From assembly GCA_016188775.1 (NCBI GenBank), contig JACPHC010000003.1, positions 344 through 64,343 of the forward strand: a DNA stretch of 64,000 nt, given 5' to 3'. Source of the stretch: Parcubacteria group bacterium (GTDB lineage: Bacteria; Patescibacteriota; Minisyncoccia; JACPHC01). The position numbers were made by a program, and so were the translations under genes. This document shows positions 1 through 35,982 of the stretch, one piece after another. The notes under the pieces are model-generated. The model was not told where the DNA came from. It did no database searches and was given only the letters and a program-made list of their open reading frames with translations. Numbering within the stretch: the stretch's first letter is position 1; every line of letters begins with the position of its first letter.

Positions 1-252
1 TATTTGAATCCGGCCAAAGATGATTTTGACTGGGCCGGAACCGTTATTGTCAATAATCAGCCACAAGTTTTAAGAATCCACACCCATAGTTTGAGCGGGG
101 TGGCGGCTCAATTCTCAATAACGCGCGACCAAAGATATAATAACGTCGCCATGCAAATAAATCTCGACGGCCAAAATTTGATAAATTATTCCGCTATTGG
201 CGCGACCACTCAAGGCTCGGCCCCGGGAGTCATCGCTCCGGAACCGCAATAA
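1..252 (+). CDS. hypothetical protein, C-terminal fragment; the ORF probably enters from upstream of the window
   Basis: Open frame from position 1 with no upstream stop; ends at TAA 250-252. No recognisable motif. Confidence 0.3.
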   Translation, partial: YLNPAKDDFDWAGTVIVNNQPQVLRIHTHSLSGVAAQFSITRDQRYNNVAMQINLDGQNLINYSAIGATTQGSAPGVIAPEPQ

Positions 253-261
253 TCCGTTGAC

Positions 262-301
262 TTCCAATATACCAATATATTAATATACTGATATATTGGA
301 A
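262..301. promoter_or_regulatory. Palindromic operator-like site (TTCCAATATAC ... GTATATTGGAA arms) upstream of the TrpR-like gene
   Basis: Inverted repeat read directly. The same arms recur at 748-779. Confidence 0.5.
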
Positions 302-308
302 AAATAAA

Positions 309-740
309 ATGTCTCGCGTATCGCAAAATCTTTTAAGTCCCAACTACCTCGAAGAAATCCAGTCATCTTTTGACTGGGCGATTTCTAAACTTTCCAAAGA
401 AGAAGAAATTAAAAATTTTTTTGATGAATTTCTTACTCGCAGTGAACGGATAATGCTGGCTAAACGCTTAATTCTGATTTTTTTAATTTCCAAAGAGTTT
501 GACGCAATATCCATCTATTCTATTTTAAAAGTTAGTCCCACCACTGTTGTTTATTTTAAGGAAAAATTTCAAAAACGACCTGAAAATTTTCAGCCAGTTC
601 TAGATCAGCTGGCCAGACGAGAATCTCTTAAAAATTTATTCAAAAAAATTGAAAAATTTATTGAACCGGTAGCCGCTTTTATGCCTCCAGCAACGAAGTC
701 CGAAGTTTTAAAAAAATTACGCAGAATTTCTCGCAGTTAA
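309..740 (+). CDS. TrpR-like YerC/YecD family DNA-binding protein
   Basis: The segment FFDEFLTRSERIMLAKRLILIFLISKEFDAISIYSILKVSPTTV matches the YerC/TrpR-type helix-turn-helix pattern. The gene is bracketed by two palindromes sharing half-sites. Confidence 0.6.
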   Translation: MSRVSQNLLSPNYLEEIQSSFDWAISKLSKEEEIKNFFDEFLTRSERIMLAKRLILIFLISKEFDAISIYSILKVSPTTVVYFKEKFQKRPENFQPVLDQLARRESLKNLFKKIEKFIEPVAAFMPPATKSEVLKKLRRISRS

Positions 741-747
741 ATTTTTA

Positions 748-779
748 TTCCAATATACTGGTATATCAGTATATTGGAA
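748..779. promoter_or_regulatory. Perfect palindrome TTCCAATATACTG-GTATAT-CAGTATATTGGAA immediately upstream of the first pseudopilin gene
   Basis: 13-bp inverted arms with a 6-nt spacer. Same half-site as 262-301. Confidence 0.55.
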
Positions 780-788
780 TAATTAAAA

Positions 789-1277
789 ATGAATAAGGAT
801 CAAAATAGCGAACTAAAAAACGGTTTCGGTCTCGTAGAAATTATTGTGGCTGTCGGTCTTTTAGCCGGCGCGATTTTTGCCATTACCGAATTGACGTTTT
901 TTTTAAATCGAACCGCTAAAGAAAGGACGGTCTCGGAACGAGCCGTTTTTTTAACCAAAGAGGGTCTGGAATTGACTCGGACAATTCGAGACCGAGGCTG
1001 GACTAATTACATCGCTAATCAAACAATCGGAATTGATTTGCATCCGGTATTAGGAGGAACGCCGGCCGGCTGGAGTTTTGCCTCGGGAACGGAAACGATT
1101 GATAATATTTTTGTCAGAAAAATAGTTTTATCCAACGTCAATCGGGACAGTCAAGATAATATTGTTTTAACCGGCGGCGTTTTAGACCCGGGAACAAAAA
1201 AAGTCATCGCCACTGTTTCTTGGGGCGTTAAAAAAATAGAATTCACTGCCTATATAACGAATTTTTTGAATAATTGA
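789..1277 (+). CDS. Type IV pilin-like protein (pseudopilin) with prepilin N-terminal motif
   Basis: N-terminus NGFGLVEIIVAVGLLAG (G-F-x-L-x-E followed by a hydrophobic helix). Confidence 0.7.
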   Translation: MNKDQNSELKNGFGLVEIIVAVGLLAGAIFAITELTFFLNRTAKERTVSERAVFLTKEGLELTRTIRDRGWTNYIANQTIGIDLHPVLGGTPAGWSFASGTETIDNIFVRKIVLSNVNRDSQDNIVLTGGVLDPGTKKVIATVSWGVKKIEFTAYITNFLNN

Positions 1278-1281
1278 TAAT

Positions 1282-1302
1282 TTACGAGGCTTAGCCTCGT
1301 AA
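1282..1302. repeat. REP-like palindrome TTACGAGGCTTAGCCTCGTAA (copy 1)
   Basis: Palindrome with 9-10 bp arms; six near-identical copies in the window. Confidence 0.8.
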
Positions 1303-1309
1303 GACTAAA

Positions 1310-1864
1310 ATGATTAATAAAAATAAAAACGGATTTACCTTAATCGAAACGATTGTTTATTTCGGCATTTTCATCATTGCCGCTTCAATAATGGTGATTC
1401 TAACCGTCAATTTAACCCGAAATTACACCAGAATAAGAATCAAATCGCAGGTTTTGGTTGAGGCGGAAAAAGTTTTAAATGTTATGCTCAATGAAATCGC
1501 CACAGCCAAAGGAATTTACGCGCCGACTTCCTGCTTTGGAACATCTGACGCGAAAACAATTTGTCAGACAGGAAAAAGACAATTAAGTTTTGAGACAACT
1601 CTTAATCCGCCGACCGGCGAAAACTCCGCTTATGTTGATTTTTATCTGGATAATCAAAAAATTTATGTTAAAAGGGAATCTCAAACGGCTCAAACTCTCA
1701 CTTCGGATCGAATTCAAATCTCCAATCTGACATTTGACTACTATAATCCTTCGACTAATTCCGCCTCGATTAAAATCCGTTTAACCGCCGGCTTTAACGC
1801 TTCGGATCCGCAAAAAATTTTCCAAGTCAATCTCGATTCTTCAGCGGCCATTAGGGCATATTAG
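1310..1864 (+). CDS. Type IV pilin-like protein (pseudopilin)
   Basis: N-terminus KNGFTLIETIVYFGIFIIAAS, a prepilin cleavage/methylation motif. Confidence 0.7.
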   Translation: MINKNKNGFTLIETIVYFGIFIIAASIMVILTVNLTRNYTRIRIKSQVLVEAEKVLNVMLNEIATAKGIYAPTSCFGTSDAKTICQTGKRQLSFETTLNPPTGENSAYVDFYLDNQKIYVKRESQTAQTLTSDRIQISNLTFDYYNPSTNSASIKIRLTAGFNASDPQKIFQVNLDSSAAIRAY

Positions 1865-1865
1865 T

Positions 1866-1888
1866 CTTATGAGGCTAAGCCTCGTAAG
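1866..1888. repeat. REP-like palindrome (copy 2, TTATGAGGCTAAGCCTCGTAA)
   Basis: Same palindrome family, 2 nt after the pseudopilin stop. Confidence 0.8.
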
Positions 1889-1894
1889 ACTATA

Positions 1895-2010
1895 AGATTG
1901 CTTCGCTTTCAGCTCGCAATGACAACCAGTTCAGCTCGCAATAATATAAAAATATTTAACTGTCATTGCGAGGCGATGGAATCGCCGAAGCAATCTCTCT
2001 TAATATATTC
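1895..2010. mobile_element. Rearranged fragments of MITE-like element B (GTCATTGCGAG terminal inverted repeats): two left-end copies and one right end
   Basis: GCTCGCAATGACA occurs twice, followed by TGTCATTGCGAGGCGATGGAATCGCCGAAGCAATC. These match the reverse complement of element ends at 62517-62611 and 63060-63199. Confidence 0.6.
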
Positions 2011-2031
2011 AACAATCTTACAAGCAAAACA

Positions 2032-4932
2032 ATGTTCAATAAACACAAAAACGCCGGTTTCGCGACCTTGCTGACAATAGTAATTATTTTAGGCCTTAGC
2101 CTGATTATCGTCAGCGGTTTTTCCGTTGCCAGTCTGTCTAATATCCGTGAATCCAAACGCGCTATTAACTCTTCTAAAACTCAATACGTCGCCGAGGCTG
2201 GGATCGAAGACAGTCTTTATCGGATTATAGCCGGGAAACAATACACGGCGACTAATAATTTAGCGGTTGGCGAAGGAACCGCCATCACTAACATTACCGA
2301 TGTTTCCGGCAATAAAATTATCACTTCTCTGGGCAACCGAGAAAATATTTTTAGAAAACTGGAAACAAAATTATCCGTTTCCACTCAAAGCGTTCAATTT
2401 TTCTACGGCGCTCAAATCGGCGAAGGGGGCGCCACTCTTAATAATGGCGCCGAAATCAATGGCAATGTCTATTCCAACGGCAATATTGTAATGACTGCCA
2501 ACGCTAAAATTAGCGGCGGCGCTATTGTGGCCGGCGGCATCGCCCCAACGCCCGATCAGCAATGGACCATTGGAAATTCCGATTTTCCTTTTGGACTGAC
2601 CACTGGCACAACCGCCATCACCGTTGATGAGCCGGGCGATATCGGCGACTATAACGCATTAACTTTGGGTTCTGACGGACTAGCCCGGATCAGCTATTAC
2701 GACGCGTCCAATAATGATCTTAAATACGTCCGTTGTACTTCAGCCGACTGTGTTTCAAAAAATATTACTACAATTGATTCTAGCGGCGATGTCGGATTTC
2801 GTTATACTTCCATTGCCATTGCCCTGGATGGATTGGCCCGAATCAGTTATTACAATAATACTAACGGCGACCTAAAATACGTTCAATGCGCCAATGACGA
2901 CTGCACGACAAAAAATATCGCCACTATTGATTCCAGTGGCGATGTCGGCCAATTCAACTCTCTGGCTTTAGGCACTGACGGATTGGCCCGAATCAGCTAT
3001 TACGCCGTCTCGGGCGGCAATCTTAAATTCCTTCACTGTTTGAACGATAACTGTTCATTGCGAAACACTTACACTGTTGACTCAATTGGCGATGTGGGCA
3101 AATACACTTCAATAGTCTTGGATCAAAACAACATCGCGATGATCAGTTATCTTGACGAAACCAATGATGATTTAAAATTTACCCAATGTTTAAATGTTGA
3201 TTGCTCCGCGGTCAATAATTACATCGTTGACTCAACCGGCGATGTCGGCCAATTCAAAACTTCCATCGCTCTTGGGTCTGACGAACTGGCCCGAATCAGT
3301 TATTATGACGACACGGGTAAGGATCTTAAATACGCTCAATGTTTAAACATCAGTTGCACGCTTAAAAATATAACTATTGTGGACTCGGCAGATCAAGTTG
3401 GAAAATACAGCTCGCTTCGACTTAATCCGGCTGACGGATTGGCCCGAATTTCTTATTATGACGCGACCAACGGCGCTGCTAAATTCGCCCGATGCTTAAA
3501 CGATTCTTGCTCCCAAAAAAATATTTCCACTCCGGATACCACCGGCAATGTCGGGCTTTACACTTCTTTGGCGATGGCTCAAGACGGCTTTGGCCAAATC
3601 AGTTATCGCGATGACACGAATCAGGATTTAAAATTTCTCAAATGCGCTGATCCGGATTGTAATCCGGGACAAACCACCGGCGACGCGGCTCAAAGTTTTA
3701 TTCCGTCAGCCACTAATCTTTTGCGTAAAATCAGCCTCAATATCAAAAAAATCGGCAGTCCGGGTGATGCCACCGTCAGGATAATGGCCAATAAATCTCC
3801 ACAAAATGTTCCGGATAAAGATAATACATTAACCACTGGCACGCTTTATTCTTCGATGGTCACTGGCAGTTATGGCTGGGTGGACGCGGCTTTTGTCACT
3901 AATCCGACTTTAAATATCGGACAAACTTATTGGATTGTTATTGACGCGGTTAATGATTCCAATAATTATTGGGTTTGGGCTAAAGATAATACCGACGCTT
4001 ATGTTTCCGGCACTGGTAAATTCGCTTTAAATTGGGATATTTCGCCCAATAACTGGTCAAGCGCGGGCGGCGATCTTGATTTTAAAACTTGGATGGCCGG
4101 AACTGTGACGAAAATAGATGGTGGCGTTGTTTCCGACGCGGCTCAAGCCAATACTTTAATCAACACCAAAATCTGCGGGGACGCTTATTTTCAAGCCATT
4201 GACGCTTTTTCGCTCAATTTCGTCAATAATCCGACCAATCCCGATTGCGCTAATCCTTTAACTCCGGGCATGTCTTTTCCCGGTTCCTCCGACCCTTCTC
4301 CGCTGGCTATGCCTATTTCCGACGGCCAAATTGACGCGTGGAAAACCGACGCCCAAGCCGGCGGCGTTATTGCCGGAGATTACAACGTGACTTCTGATGT
4401 CAGTCTTGGTCCGAAAAAAATCACCGGCAATCTTAATATGACCAGTAACAATAGAACTCTGACCGTCACCGGAACAATTTATATCGCGGGCAATATAGAT
4501 ATTGCCAACAATTCAAGAATCCGCTGCGACGCTTCTTACGGGATAAATTCATGCGTTGTTGTGGCGGACGGTTGGATTCATATTTCCAATAACGGACAAT
4601 TCGCCGGATCGGGTCAGGCCGGCAGTTATATTATGCTGCTGACGACCGCTCCCTGCAAAGGAACCGGTTTTTCCAATCCGCCAACGCCTTGCGCCTCCGC
4701 CCACCATGAAGCCAGCGTTGACCTTCATAACAGCGCCACCGGAATAATTTTTTACGCCAAAAACGGACTGATTAATCTTCATAACACAGTTAATGTCACG
4801 GAATTGTCGTCTTTTAAACTGGCGCTGGATAACAACGCCGTGATAAATTACGAACAAGGACTGCAAAACGCTCAGTTCACTTCCGGCCCAAGCGCGGGCT
4901 ATAAAATCGAATACTGGAAAGAAGTGCCTTAA
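2032..4932 (+). CDS. Large pilus-associated protein: pilin-like N-terminal helix, eight tandem ~44-aa Cys-containing repeats (propeller-like) and a C-terminal beta-helix-like region; putative tip adhesin
   Basis: MFNKHKNAGFATLLTIVIILGL is a pilin-like N-terminus. The repeat unit is GDVGxYTS(I/L)AL..DGLARISYYDxTNxDLKYxxCxNxxC..KNI..IDS, eight copies. The ORF-track start at 1966 (TTG) lies inside a MITE fragment, so the ATG at 2032 is preferred. Confidence 0.6.
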   Translation: MFNKHKNAGFATLLTIVIILGLSLIIVSGFSVASLSNIRESKRAINSSKTQYVAEAGIEDSLYRIIAGKQYTATNNLAVGEGTAITNITDVSGNKIITSLGNRENIFRKLETKLSVSTQSVQFFYGAQIGEGGATLNNGAEINGNVYSNGNIVMTANAKISGGAIVAGGIAPTPDQQWTIGNSDFPFGLTTGTTAITVDEPGDIGDYNALTLGSDGLARISYYDASNNDLKYVRCTSADCVSKNITTIDSSGDVGFRYTSIAIALDGLARISYYNNTNGDLKYVQCANDDCTTKNIATIDSSGDVGQFNSLALGTDGLARISYYAVSGGNLKFLHCLNDNCSLRNTYTVDSIGDVGKYTSIVLDQNNIAMISYLDETNDDLKFTQCLNVDCSAVNNYIVDSTGDVGQFKTSIALGSDELARISYYDDTGKDLKYAQCLNISCTLKNITIVDSADQVGKYSSLRLNPADGLARISYYDATNGAAKFARCLNDSCSQKNISTPDTTGNVGLYTSLAMAQDGFGQISYRDDTNQDLKFLKCADPDCNPGQTTGDAAQSFIPSATNLLRKISLNIKKIGSPGDATVRIMANKSPQNVPDKDNTLTTGTLYSSMVTGSYGWVDAAFVTNPTLNIGQTYWIVIDAVNDSNNYWVWAKDNTDAYVSGTGKFALNWDISPNNWSSAGGDLDFKTWMAGTVTKIDGGVVSDAAQANTLINTKICGDAYFQAIDAFSLNFVNNPTNPDCANPLTPGMSFPGSSDPSPLAMPISDGQIDAWKTDAQAGGVIAGDYNVTSDVSLGPKKITGNLNMTSNNRTLTVTGTIYIAGNIDIANNSRIRCDASYGINSCVVVADGWIHISNNGQFAGSGQAGSYIMLLTTAPCKGTGFSNPPTPCASAHHEASVDLHNSATGIIFYAKNGLINLHNTVNVTELSSFKLALDNNAVINYEQGLQNAQFTSGPSAGYKIEYWKEVP
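2631..3670 (+). repeat. Eight tandem 132-nt coding repeats inside the large pilus-associated gene
   Basis: Recurring GACGGATTGGCCCGAATCAG(C/T)TATTAC at 132-nt spacing (around 2679, 2830, 2983, 3284, 3436). Confidence 0.75.
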
Positions 4933-4950: not shown

Positions 4951-4973
4951 TTTACGAGGCTAAGCCTCGTAAA
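4951..4973. repeat. REP-like palindrome (copy 3; a half copy also at 4934-4946) overlapping the RAYT stop codon
   Basis: TTTACGAGGCTAAGCCTCGTAAA; encodes the last residues ...LRGLAS* of the RAYT on the minus strand. Confidence 0.8.
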
Positions 4974-5596
4974 TTTATTAAAGTGCTTTTTTTATACTGA
5001 ATCGGCCCGCCAAAAAATTTCATTAAAAATTTCCGTTGCGTGACTGAAGGGAAATTTTTTTTCCCAATATAATCACGAAAACTGCTCCATCGATAATTTT
5101 CCAAAAATTTCATCGCTTCTTTATAATTTTTAATTTCTTTATTTTTCCACTCTGGAGATTTCAAATCTAAAGGATTTAAATGGATATAATCAGGAATATG
5201 AAGAAATTGAGCGTCCTTTTCAACTAAAACTGCCTTAAAAGTTCCTTGAAATAAAGAACCGGTTCGTTCGTATTTTTGATTAAAATACATTGTATAACCT
5301 CCTCCTAATTTATGCATAAAATTTGCAATTCCGTTGTCCTGTCGCTGTCTTAAAAGTAAATGAAAATGATTTGGCATTAATGTAAAAACTAAAATTTCGA
5401 CTAATAATTTTCTTTTTTCAATTTTACGAGGCTTAGCCTCGTAATAAGAATTAAGCGCGGGCTTTTCGTCGTTAAATTCAAACAAGTCATGAATAAATCG
5501 AAAATAATCTTTATCATCTAAAAAAATATCGCGCTTTTCCACGCCACGATTATAAATATGATAAATTTTTCCTTCCGTGAATTTTATTTTTCTCAT
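4952..5596 (-). CDS. REP-associated tyrosine transposase (RAYT; IS200/IS605-like Y1 transposase)
   Basis: IYHIYNRGVEKRDIF ... LMPNHFHLLL (HuH motif) ... YTMYFNQKY (catalytic Tyr region). Flanked by REP palindromes. Confidence 0.75.
   Translation of the reverse strand: MRKIKFTEGKIYHIYNRGVEKRDIFLDDKDYFRFIHDLFEFNDEKPALNSYYEAKPRKIEKRKLLVEILVFTLMPNHFHLLLRQRQDNGIANFMHKLGGGYTMYFNQKYERTGSLFQGTFKAVLVEKDAQFLHIPDYIHLNPLDLKSPEWKNKEIKNYKEAMKFLENYRWSSFRDYIGKKNFPSVTQRKFLMKFFGGPIQYKKSTLINLRGLAS
5424..5444. repeat. REP-like palindrome (copy 4) located inside the RAYT CDS, in frame (encodes YYEAKPRK)
   Basis: TTACGAGGCTTAGCCTCGTAA within 4952..5596. Confidence 0.75.
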
Positions 5597-5605
5597 AAAA
5601 TAATT

Positions 5606-5626
5606 TTATGAGGCTTAGCCTCGTAA
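5606..5626. repeat. REP-like palindrome (copy 5), 10 nt upstream of the RAYT start
   Basis: TTATGAGGCTTAGCCTCGTAA. Confidence 0.8.
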
Positions 5627-5670: not shown

Positions 5671-6753
5671 ATGTCATTTTTTTCTTTCAAAGAAACCGCT
5701 ATCGGCCTTGATATTTCCGATTATTCGATTAAAGCCGTTTATTTAAAAAATACGCGCCAAGGTAAAATTATTAAAAATCTTTTTGAACTAGCCATACCGC
5801 CGGGCTTAATTAATCAAGGAGAAATTCAAAATCAGGATAAACTTTTTGAAATTTTTAAAGAATTTTTAAAAAAAATTAAGGCCAGCCGAATTAAAACGCC
5901 CTATATCGTCTCTTCTTTGCCGGAAGAAAAATCATTTATCTCGGTTATTCAGCTCCCCAAAATGGAAGAGAAAGAAATAGGATCGGCTCTTGGTTTTGAA
6001 ATTGAGGCTAATGTTCCTTACGCCTTTCAAGAAGTTTATTTTGACTGGAAAAGCCTGCCTTCGGCCAGCCTCGATCATCTGGATATTCTGGTCGCGGCTT
6101 CGCCTAAAAAAATAGTTGATTCTTATTTTTCTCTTCTCAAGCGCCTAAAACTTATATCGGTCGCTTTTGAAATTGAATCGCAAGCCATTGCCAGAGCTTT
6201 AATCAAAAATGAAATCCAAGAAAAACCGATATTGCTTATTGATTTAGGCGCGACCCGCACCAGTTTCATTATTTTTTCCGGCGGCTCTATTCGTTTTACT
6301 TCTTCCATCCCCGTCTCGTCCAAAGATTTAACTTCAGCTATCGCTGACGTCCTAAAAATTCCGGAAAATGAAGCCGAAATTTTAAAAATCAAACACGGGC
6401 TTGATAAAAAAGGGACGGAAGGAATTAAAATATTTGACGCGATTCTGCCGCGCCTAACCGCTCTCATTGAAAAAATTCAAAATCTCATTATTTTTTACCA
6501 AAGCCACGCCAAACACGAACACGGCCGGATTTTGGAATTCGAAAATATTCTTCTTTCCGGCGGAGGCGCCAATCTGGCCGGCCTTTCTCAATATTTAAAA
6601 GAGGAATTAAAACGAAAAATTGGATTAGGCAACCCTTTCGTTAATCTGGCAAAATCGCCAACAAAATTTTTATCTGATCTGGCGCCTGATAAGGCCGTCG
6701 CCTTCACCACCGCCATTGGCCTGGCTTTAAGAAACATTGAAACGGAAATTTAA
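5671..6753 (+). CDS. pilM: Type IV pilus assembly protein PilM (actin-like ATPase)
   Basis: N-terminus AIGLDISDYSIKAVYL, a typical PilM start, plus an actin-fold sugar-kinase-like pattern. Confidence 0.8.
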   Translation: MSFFSFKETAIGLDISDYSIKAVYLKNTRQGKIIKNLFELAIPPGLINQGEIQNQDKLFEIFKEFLKKIKASRIKTPYIVSSLPEEKSFISVIQLPKMEEKEIGSALGFEIEANVPYAFQEVYFDWKSLPSASLDHLDILVAASPKKIVDSYFSLLKRLKLISVAFEIESQAIARALIKNEIQEKPILLIDLGATRTSFIIFSGGSIRFTSSIPVSSKDLTSAIADVLKIPENEAEILKIKHGLDKKGTEGIKIFDAILPRLTALIEKIQNLIIFYQSHAKHEHGRILEFENILLSGGGANLAGLSQYLKEELKRKIGLGNPFVNLAKSPTKFLSDLAPDKAVAFTTAIGLALRNIETEI

Positions 6754-16302: not shown

Positions 16303-17010
16303 TCACAGTTTTAACATTTTTCGTCCACGCTCTAATCTAATCTCTGTTCCCAAATCACTCCAATAACCATTATGAATAAAAGCTATTAAATGGCCATTTT
16401 TTGCTAAATTAGGAAAAATCTCGCGTTCAATAGAGAATGTTTCACGTGAAACATTTTTAAAAATATCCGGATGAAGAATATAATATCCAGTATTTATATA
16501 ACCAATGCATTCTTTTTGAGGTTTTTCCAAAAAATTCAAAATTTTTTTCTTTTCCGGATGAAAATTAATTAAACCAAAATCTTTCGCTTTTTGGCAATGC
16601 CAAACAGCGATTGAGCCCCTATTTTTAGTTTCACGTGAAACATTTTGGTAATTTTCTGTAAAAGATTTTAAGTTAATATCGCTAATTACGTCCCCATTTA
16701 GCGCTAAAAACGGCTTATCTATATCTTTTGAAGCGAATTTTATAGCGCCACCCGTGCCTAATGGTTCTTTTTCTATAACATAATCATACTGAAAAGGCAG
16801 CTTTTTACTTAATTGATTAATAAAATCAATAATTTGATCAGCAAAACGACCCAAGCTAATTCTAATATCGTTAAAGCCGTGTTTACTAAGCAATTCTATT
16901 TGATGTTGAAGAATTGCTTTATTTCCGATTTCAACTAAGGCCTTTGGTTTATTCTTGGCAGAAATCGGAAGACGAGTTGCTTTTCCGCCCGCTAAAATAA
17001 TAGTTTTCAT
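16303..17010 (-). CDS. Sugar-phosphate nucleotidyltransferase (NTP_transferase family)
   Basis: MKTIILAGGKATRL ... EPLGTGGAI. The CDS contains two in-frame copies of a 20-bp palindrome encoding NVSRET. Confidence 0.75.
   Translation of the reverse strand: MKTIILAGGKATRLPISAKNKPKALVEIGNKAILQHQIELLSKHGFNDIRISLGRFADQIIDFINQLSKKLPFQYDYVIEKEPLGTGGAIKFASKDIDKPFLALNGDVISDINLKSFTENYQNVSRETKNRGSIAVWHCQKAKDFGLINFHPEKKKILNFLEKPQKECIGYINTGYYILHPDIFKNVSRETFSIEREIFPNLAKNGHLIAFIHNGYWSDLGTEIRLERGRKMLKL
16436..16455. repeat. 20-bp palindrome AATGTTTCACGTGAAACATT (copy 1, inside a CDS)
   Basis: Perfect palindrome with a CACGTG core. Confidence 0.8.
16627..16644. repeat. Palindrome AGTTTCACGTGAAACATT (copy 2, inside a CDS)
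   Basis: 16 of 20 positions identical to copy 1. Confidence 0.75.
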
Positions 17011-17242: not shown

Positions 17243-17262
17243 AATGTTTCACGTGAAACATT
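17243..17262. repeat. 20-bp palindrome AATGTTTCACGTGAAACATT (copy 3, intergenic)
   Basis: Identical to copy 1. Confidence 0.8.
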
Positions 17263-17314
17263 TTCTATATTTATATTAAAATTTTAATGTTTAAATTTTG
17301 GCTTTATTAAGCTA

Positions 17315-17370
17315 AATGTCCGATAAATTGTCCAATAGAATGTCCTGTATTTTGTCCAATAATGTCCAAT
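17315..17370. promoter_or_regulatory. Five direct repeats of (A)TGTCC(A/G)ATA upstream of the nucleotidyltransferase gene
   Basis: ATGTCCGATAAAT, TGTCCAATAGA, ATGTCCTGTAT, TGTCCAATAA, TGTCCAATAAA. Confidence 0.4.
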
Positions 17371-17376
17371 AAAAAA

Positions 17377-19854: not shown

Positions 19855-19990
19855 TCGTTATTTCACCTCCTTTCCGTTTTTATGTTAAAATTAAAGAACT
19901 GCTTATTAATTTAATGATGTCATATATTAATATATTTGTCAAATAAAATAAAAGGTCTGCAAGTTTATAATATTAAATTTTAATCAATAT

Positions 19991-35960: not shown

Positions 35961-35982
35961 TTACGATGCTAAGCCTCGTAAG
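35960..35982. repeat. REP-like palindrome (copy 6, one mismatch) forming the last codons and stop of ksgA
   Basis: CTTACGATGCTAAGCCTCGTAAG; the minus-strand reading gives ...VLRGLAS*. Confidence 0.75.

Follow-up and report, generated by a model that had tools for sequence, protein, structure and literature searches.

A TrpR-family regulator gene between two predicted operators in a type IV pilus cluster of a Parcubacteria-group bacterium

Among the closest described relatives of the system treated here is the E. coli tryptophan repressor TrpR (PF01371; PDB 1tro, 1trr), whose own gene is among its targets. Its trp operator, ACTAGT-TA-ACTAGT, is built of 6-bp palindromes with a 2-bp gap, and of 5426 E. 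coli genomes 5421 have this reference operator, ACTAGTTAACTAGT, directly in front of trpL. The tandem spacing of E. coli TrpR is reportedly 8 bp, a value ascribed to Lawson and Carey in 1993; no open paper stating this spacing was found in the literature. TrpR dimers bind in tandem on operator arrays (PMC8745587), and the length of an array would set the number of dimers. A second described branch of the family is YerC/YecD (TIGR02531; PDB 3kor, 3frw, 3g1c). YerC is the histidine repressor HisR, a protein of <100 aa that sits with or controls the his and yuiF genes and whose operators, at his genes, are 20-bp palindromes of the TrpR type (PMC9413887). The present work concerns a further member of PF01371, a 143-aa protein (NCBI locus tag HYV52_00980) encoded at positions 309 to 740 of the forward strand in a 64,000-nt stretch of DNA, hereafter the window, from a Parcubacteria-group metagenome-assembled genome (MAG; GenBank assembly GCA_016188775.1, contig JACPHC010000003.1, positions 344 to 64,343). 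Its gene is bracketed by two palindromes that are predicted to be its own operators.

The likeness to E. coli TrpR comprises the Pfam family, the predicted fold, the conserved motif LT-x-x-E-R/K-x-x-L-x-x-R (R54, here R53, included) and the plan of the operator, which reads RTATAY-NN-RTATAY here, with the same 6-bp palindromes and 2-bp gap. Unlike TrpR, however, the protein has 143 aa with two extra C-terminal helices and a changed tryptophan pocket, its host belongs to the Candidate Phyla Radiation (CPR), no trp or aro genes occur in its context, a second predicted operator lies directly 3' of the gene, and the promoters of its relatives appear to be of the leaderless type. Unlike HisR, its family consists of proteins of ~140 aa from CPR bacteria, without his context and with the gene bracketed by its own sites. 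Recognisable transcription factors are very scarce in CPR (Patescibacteria) genomes, and the literature yielded no paper that deals with TrpR-like regulators of these bacteria, with this family or with this layout. The family thereby gains a predicted operator grammar, a predicted leaderless promoter type and an unusual, conserved second operator, likewise predicted, just past the stop codon.

The regulator protein and its flanking palindromes

The 143-aa protein matches PF01371 (Trp_repressor) over residues 24-101 with 34.3 bits against a cutoff of 27 (E 2.5e-8), and its scores against TIGR02531 (YerC/YecD; 16.5 bits, cutoff 42.2) and TIGR01321 (TrpR equivalog; 18.4 bits, cutoff 67.25) stay below the respective cutoffs. 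A single-chain AlphaFold (AF2) model built on 97 family sequences (pLDDT 85.9) has eight helices, with two of them (residues 105-142) forming a C-terminal extension beyond the TrpR fold. The best 26 Foldseek matches in the PDB were all TrpR or TrpR-like chains (probability up to 1.00), among them 1trr, which bears 'tandem binding' in its title; target-normalised TM values were 0.58-0.80, mostly 0.67-0.80, with weak E-values (>=0.15). The nearest solved relatives by profile and fold are the YerC/HisR-type structures 3kor, 3frw and 3g1c, which were matched with target-normalised TM values of 0.74-0.80 and by the family profile with E from 2.9e-13 (3kor) to 5e-12, versus E ~5e-3 for E. coli TrpR. 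Profile alignment equates R54 of E. coli TrpR with R53, which is invariant in the family, and aligns the tryptophan-pocket residues R84 and G85 to Y82 and F83. No catalytic domain was found by Pfam or in the AlphaFold model. The protein is, on this modelling, a TrpR-family regulator with a predicted all-helical TrpR fold, as had been proposed in a first-pass annotation made from the letters of this DNA. The annotation's narrower label, YerC-type, is to be set aside: judged by TIGR02531, the protein is not a YerC/YecD equivalog, though that branch is its nearest solved relative.

AT-rich palindromes flank the gene on both sides, an observation of the first-pass annotation that the sequence bears out. 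Site 1 (262-301; 40 bp), the predicted operator overlapping the regulator's promoter, lies 9 nt past the stop codon of a 284-aa pilin gene and ends 7 nt (302-308) before the regulator's ATG at 309. It consists of TTCCAATATACCAATATATT followed by AATATACTGATATATTGGAA, arms of 20+20 nt with 90% complementarity and exact outer 10-mers (TTCCAATATA and TATATTGGAA), and in register it contains four RTATAY hexamers (TTCCA-ATATAC-CA-ATATAT-TA-ATATAC-TG-ATATAT-TGGAA). Its right arm, earlier given as GTATATTGGAA, actually reads ATATATTGGAA, and the spacer, put at 16 nt, is 18 nt with 11-nt arms. Site 2 (745-782; 38 bp) begins 4 nt past the regulator's stop codon (738-740) and ends 6 nt short of the ATG, at 789, of a pilin-like gene. 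It has arms of 19+19 nt with 95% complementarity, including perfect 14-nt arms (ATTCCAATATACTG/CAGTATATTGGAAT) around GTATAT, and combines three RTATAY hexamers with the same TTCCA/TGGAA flanks as site 1 (TTCCA-ATATAC-TG-GTATAT-CA-GTATAT-TGGAA). Both sites are built of 6-bp palindromes spaced by 2 bp, giving an 8-bp period, and site 2 is shorter by exactly one 8-bp unit. To judge from their letters, both match a TrpR-type operator grammar of at least two 6-bp palindromes with 2-bp gaps, and site 1 overlaps the predicted promoter.

These palindromes did not arise by chance, which is excluded by the counts of exact arms and of hexamer arrays. Within the 64 kb of the window, TTCCAATATA has four exact matches, namely the four arms, and none elsewhere; TATA-N4-TATA-N4-TATA has five matches, all within sites 1 and 2, against 0.22 expected; and RTATAYNNRTATAY has six against 0.05 expected, five of them within the two sites. 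The latter hexamer pattern has no further match in 10 kb of upstream sequence, and the two sites are unique over the window and these 10 kb. When one mismatch is tolerated, TTCCAATATA shows no enrichment in the 64 kb (11 matches, 10.2 expected), and the motif is therefore not diffusely scattered. The sole remaining RTATAYNNRTATAY match, tcATATATTAATATATtt at 19919-19938 (also given as ATATATTAATATAT), is a weak candidate third site with two hexamers and without the CCAA/TTGG flanks. It is intergenic, between a 176-aa open reading frame (ORF) on the reverse strand and a 53-aa ORF on the forward strand, and resembles the operator core of a related locus (L152), but it may also be plain AT-rich sequence.

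Species-representative genomes were also scanned for TTCCAATATA-N8-24-TATATTGGAA, with 118 loci (L003-L120) among the matches listed. The parent MAG is not represented among these 118 loci, and no family member is encoded in any of them. One recurring spacer, TTCCAATATA-N18-TATATTGGAA, is shared by over half of the matches listed, and these come mostly from Prochlorococcus and related cyanobacterial records; at the sole such locus examined (L024), the match (3176-3213) lies inside a 400-aa ORF. The Prochlorococcus N18 matches appear to be coincidence, unrelated to the CPR sites.

The bracket in related loci

A word-indexed homologue search retrieved only the query protein, and the family emerged from an exhaustive HMMER search, which yielded 596 representatives at 50% identity of ~140 aa each. 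Their source names span CPR lineages, including Microgenomates, Levybacteria, Azambacteria, Woesebacteria, Sungbacteria and Beckwithbacteria, and a precomputed PF01371 match was present in all but two of 112 family members found. The family is thus a large and uncharacterised one of ~140-aa proteins from CPR bacteria. For comparison of the flanks, 26 non-identical family loci with 25-55% identity to the 143-aa protein were assembled, part of the metagenome loci being gathered through a sub-alignment sharing FLTKEEK.

An upstream palindrome of operator type is present in all 26 loci. In 21 of them, one locus-specific palindrome stands both before the ATG and after the stop codon (shuffle p <=0.01); four have the upstream copy alone, and in one (L136) the second copy has been displaced by a transposase insertion. 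Of 128 control ORFs from these loci, only 5 attained the score threshold that the 21 loci pass in the flank comparison. The distance from the upstream copy to the ATG is mostly 0-17 nt (~100 nt in two loci), and that from the stop codon to the downstream copy mostly 0-45 nt (~65 nt in one). The hexamer-NN-hexamer plan is constant and the letters are lineage-specific, for example ACTAATATAC-TA-GTATATTAGT, GTATAC-CG-GTATAC, ATATAT-TG-GTATAT and ATGTAT-CG-ATACAT; even in P0002, at 55% identity the closest homologue, the bracket is built on another motif, ATGTATCGATACAT. The two copies within one locus co-vary in sequence, and a motif that differs among lineages yet co-varies within a locus fits the expectation for an operator and its regulator. 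The generic hexamer pattern, moreover, is almost confined to the two flanking positions in the family loci examined.

Promoter geometry in these relatives points in the same direction. The predicted promoter is of consensus sigma-70 type: TTGACN precedes the operator in 17 of 19 family loci checked, and in most of the 19 the upstream copy is enclosed in the arrangement TTGACN-17/18-TATAYT-6..9-ATG. The predicted operator covers the -10 element together with the spacer, where repressors classically act by steric hindrance, and the predicted start point falls at or beside the ATG, which implies a leaderless mRNA. In the window, a -35-like hexamer, TTGACT (257-262, forward strand), abuts site 1. 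A promoter scan paired it across 18 nt with TAATAT, a candidate -10 element at 281-286; read directly, the sequence also offers, with the last hexamer of this longer array, an extended -10 element, TGATATATT (289-297), at a distance of 11 nt from the ATG. At its end, site 2 repeats the TATATTGGAA-(A/T-rich)-ATG context of site 1.

What adjoins the regulator gene is, by comparison, heterogeneous, with neighbours that include tRNA synthetase, SDR, DHH-like, Pro-rich membrane protein, Carb_kinase, topoisomerase and SHMT genes. No his genes occur in any of the 26 loci, nor was a consistent link of the regulator or its sites to pilus genes found across them, although a PilB fragment lies near the family gene in one locus (L153). 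The second copy is kept even where the next gene is convergent (L150, L138). The bracket is a conserved trait of the regulator gene itself in the sampled CPR lineages and not a signature of pilin control.

Three observations on individual loci may be added. In L125, L126, L128, L129, L132, L134 and L153, a subclade-conserved downstream gene encodes a Pro-rich single-pass membrane protein (MDNQNPTPSP...; only a sub-threshold PsbP_2 match); a TTGACA promoter belonging to this gene lies 0-40 nt beyond the second copy of the operator. In L121, where a pilin gene is divergent from the regulator gene, a differently spaced dyad (TATAC-CTAGTCTAG-GTATA-like, 5900-5930) near the start of the pilin gene differs from ATATAT-TG-GTATAT, the site of the regulator itself, and could serve the pilin gene as a weaker operator. 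Finally, in L136 (2300-3210; likewise L137) a gene for a REP-associated tyrosine transposase (RAYT; REP, repetitive extragenic palindromic) with GCCTCGCAAGG-type palindromes stands between the TrpR-like gene and the displaced operator-like site (ATATACTAGTATAC at 3189), an arrangement that looks like a REP/RAYT insertion splitting the regulator's bracket.

Predicted autorepression and the competing explanations

Taken as a whole, the layout is probably best explained by a dimeric TrpR-fold repressor that would bind 8-bp-spaced RTATAY hexamers and repress its own gene, with site 2 cooperating and the pilin-like genes perhaps being gated by the same protein. Within this model, autoregulation is the well-supported part: site 1 overlaps the gene's own promoter, so the regulator should repress its own synthesis, and on the strength of the recurring bracket the protein is very probably an autorepressor. 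Each predicted dimer would span a pair of adjacent hexamers, in the manner of E. coli TrpR on ACTAGT-TA-ACTAGT; site 1, with its four hexamers, would hold about three tandem dimers, site 2 with its three about two, and the two-hexamer sites of most relatives one dimer each. Under such a tandem-unit grammar, two sites that differ in length by one 8-bp unit can serve the same protein.

The role of site 2 may be approached by analogy with lac O1-O2 and gal OE-OI, where a distance of a few hundred bp likewise separates an operator at the promoter from an auxiliary copy downstream, and where the auxiliary operator strengthens repression by looping. The lac and gal regulators differ in belonging to another protein family, and only here does the second site stand just past the regulator's own stop codon. 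Site 2 would probably cooperate with site 1, either by looping across ~450 bp or as a roadblock at the 3' end of the gene. Since site 2 also ends just 6-9 nt short of the pilin-like gene, and no terminator-like site was scored between 740 and 789, the same protein would gate the genes at 789-4932 as well. Transcription of the pilin-like genes could continue from the regulator gene or start at a weak promoter within site 2, and they would be regulator-controlled either way.

An unlikely alternative is that the palindromes function at the RNA level, with hairpins in both untranslated regions (5' and 3') affecting mRNA stability or termination or masking the pilin start, and not as protein-binding DNA. 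Folded as RNA, site 2 reaches -20.5 kcal/mol (z = -7.4), with a stem of 16 bp, and site 1 -12.1 kcal/mol (z = -5.3); both stand a few nt before a start codon, where a hairpin could occlude initiation, and site 2 comes right after a stop codon, where a terminator would be expected. However, no U-tract follows the hairpin, no terminator-like site was scored there, and Rfam gave no family match, only meaningless sub-threshold matches to miRNA hairpins. The equivalent hairpins of relatives are weak (-8.1 kcal/mol in L133; -4.2 kcal/mol, no better than shuffles, in L129), and in most relatives the upstream copy sits between a -35 element and a -10 element whose end is 6-9 nt from the ATG, so that it would be mostly untranscribed. 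What is conserved is the hexamer at its 8-bp period and not the strength of a stem.

It is similarly improbable that the arrays are strong AT-rich promoter modules, or the sites of another factor, with the TrpR-like protein acting elsewhere. RTATAY followed by T does read as a -10 hexamer (TATAYT), and the upstream copies coincide with predicted promoters, but the dyad symmetry reaches well beyond a -10 element and downstream copies are present where no co-directional gene follows (L150, L138). The flanks of the arrays, too, are lineage-specific and common to the two copies of a locus (CCAA/TTGG here, ACTAA/TTAGT elsewhere), and the near-confinement of the hexamer pattern to the flanks of the TrpR-like gene in the family loci examined likewise speaks against this reading. 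That the gene and its two flanking repeats form a mobile or excisable cassette, with the repeats as terminal recombination sites, is very improbable: a ~0.43-kb gene does stand between near-identical repeats in many genomes with unrelated neighbours, the two L129 copies are identical at 28 of 28 positions, the asymmetric one included, and RAYT/REP elements are active in the same neighbourhoods, but no recombinase or transposase is consistently adjacent, the regulator itself lacks a catalytic domain, synteny is kept within subclades (tRNA synthetase-, SDR- or DHH-like neighbours), four loci have the upstream copy only, and that copy is phased with the -35 element, the -10 element and the ATG as an operator would be.

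Several features weigh against autorepression and pilin gating as set out above. The distance from TTGACT to the last TATATT at site 1 is 29 nt, versus the canonical 17-18 nt in relatives, which leaves the promoter assignment in the window ambiguous. Site 2 has no TG-extended -10 element and its -35 element is weak and unconvincing, so that a separate pilin promoter is doubtful. Given the 8-bp difference in length, a single dimer of fixed geometry could not touch the outer TTCCA/TGGAA arms of site 1 and of site 2 alike, which forces the proposed tandem-unit model. With Y82 and F83 at the tryptophan-pocket positions, the effector logic of TrpR may not apply. Finally, a pilin adjoins the family gene in only two of the 26 loci, here and, divergently, in L121.

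The first-pass annotation had read the layout as that of an autoregulated repressor controlling the downstream pilin genes. Its first half is sustained by the bracket in 21 of 26 loci and by the upstream copy in the gene's own promoter. Its second half fares less well, in that site 2 is not a pilin-specific operator: on the 3' side of the regulator gene a second site is typical of the family, so pilin control is not implied by the layout, and as the downstream copy is present whatever follows, convergent genes included, such control is only a locus-specific possibility. No site was found ahead of pilB, pilC or the 284-aa pilin gene in the window and the 10 kb upstream of it. Even so, gating of the pilin genes at this particular locus is plausible, with the balance tipped slightly in its favour. 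If site 2 does gate the pilin-like genes, it would offer a first concrete handle on the control of pilus components in an episymbiotic-type bacterium.

Type IV pili and ComEC are generally thought to be central to DNA uptake and host attachment in CPR bacteria. ComEC is absent in the window and in the family loci. The scan of species-representative genomes did give one relevant match: in L041 (JAUSFV010000006.1, from the MAG 'bacterium E14_maxbin.402', JAUSFV01), comEC (PF03772, 163 bits) is preceded at 22 nt by a perfect 34-nt palindrome with three RTATAY hexamers, ATTCCAATATACCAGTATACTGGTATATTGGAAT (6369-6402). This palindrome is near-identical to site 2 of the window and has 21 nt in common with the autoregulatory site of another family locus (L149), and no TrpR-like gene is present in the 8 kb of L041 sequence examined. 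The comEC site may be a non-self target of a family member, and as such it is a lead to a DNA-uptake/pilus regulon and not evidence for one. It is tempting, if speculative, to suggest that the ~0.5-kb unit of operator, leaderless TrpR-like gene and operator is a conserved, self-contained CPR regulatory cassette whose 3' operator loops to the 5' one or acts with it as a roadblock. Placed in a type IV pilus cluster, the unit would gate minor-pilin genes and, together with the comEC site, could point to a regulon for DNA uptake and pili under the control of this family, in bacteria with very few transcription factors.

Gene neighbourhood and other repeats

The window starts inside a type IV pilus cluster of the Parcubacteria-group MAG. 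The view upstream comes from a Logan contig (L001) that carries the identical regulator gene and adds 10 kb to the window; over these ~10 kb, domain matches identify a sensor kinase, a response regulator, PilB (MshEN+T2SSE), PilC (T2SSF) and the 284-aa N_methyl pilin. The 3' end of the latter's gene (1-252, forward strand), which encodes a protein with an N-terminal methylation motif, closes the pilB-pilC-pilin block on that contig. Downstream of the regulator gene, the co-directional block on the forward strand comprises three genes. The first (789-1277), the possible regulated target, encodes a 162-aa pilin-like protein with a class III signal-like N-terminus (KNG|FGLVEI), a sub-threshold N_methyl match (E 0.045) and weak ComGE/XpsI-like matches. 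The second (1310-1864) encodes a 184-aa minor-pilin-like protein (N_methyl 21.5 bits, cutoff 21.2; ComGE/ComGF/GspI-like matches sub-threshold), and the last (2032-4932) a 966-aa protein whose translation has a pilin-like hydrophobic N-terminus and repeats, with no Pfam match. A RAYT-like Y1 transposase gene (Y1_Tnp; 4952-5596, reverse strand) follows, and then PilM and PilN.

A GC-rich palindrome, ACGAGGCTWAGCCTCGT, has six matches in the window against 0.05 expected (1284-1300, 1869-1885, 4954-4970, 5426-5442, 5608-5624 and 35963-35979), and pattern matching located another copy on the upstream contig (L001 9067-9083). Copies stand directly ahead of the ATGs of the 284-aa and 184-aa pilin genes, and these palindromes were considered as operators. 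They were rejected as such: the copies cluster around and inside the RAYT-like transposase gene, where one of them is in frame in the transposase ORF and encodes EAKPR. Together, the palindrome and the Y1_Tnp gene suggest a REP/RAYT pair.

Another candidate was the set of five repeats near 17.3 kb that had been described as related half-sites. Five TGTCCAATA-like units do exist (17317-17371), as part of a 12-bp direct tandem repeat of ~5.4 units (17313-17373; TRF score 53) located just past the 3' end of uppS (reverse strand) and 300 nt upstream of a nucleotidyltransferase gene. The units have neither RTATAY hexamers nor dyad symmetry and so give no support to the description as half-sites; as direct repeats, they were rejected as part of the regulator system. 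The array is reminiscent of iterons or of binding sites arranged as direct repeats, and is unrelated to the palindromes around the regulator gene. The intergenic region that holds it also contains a perfect 20-nt palindrome, AATGTTTCACGTGAAACATT (17243-17262), ~230 nt upstream of the nucleotidyltransferase gene (16303-17010, reverse strand). Finally, the sequence upstream of the 966-aa pilin-like gene contains, within 1908-1972, a direct repeat, TTCAGCTCGCAAT, in two copies 22 nt apart and an inverted pair, CTCGCAATGACA/TGTCATTGCGAG, 36 nt apart.

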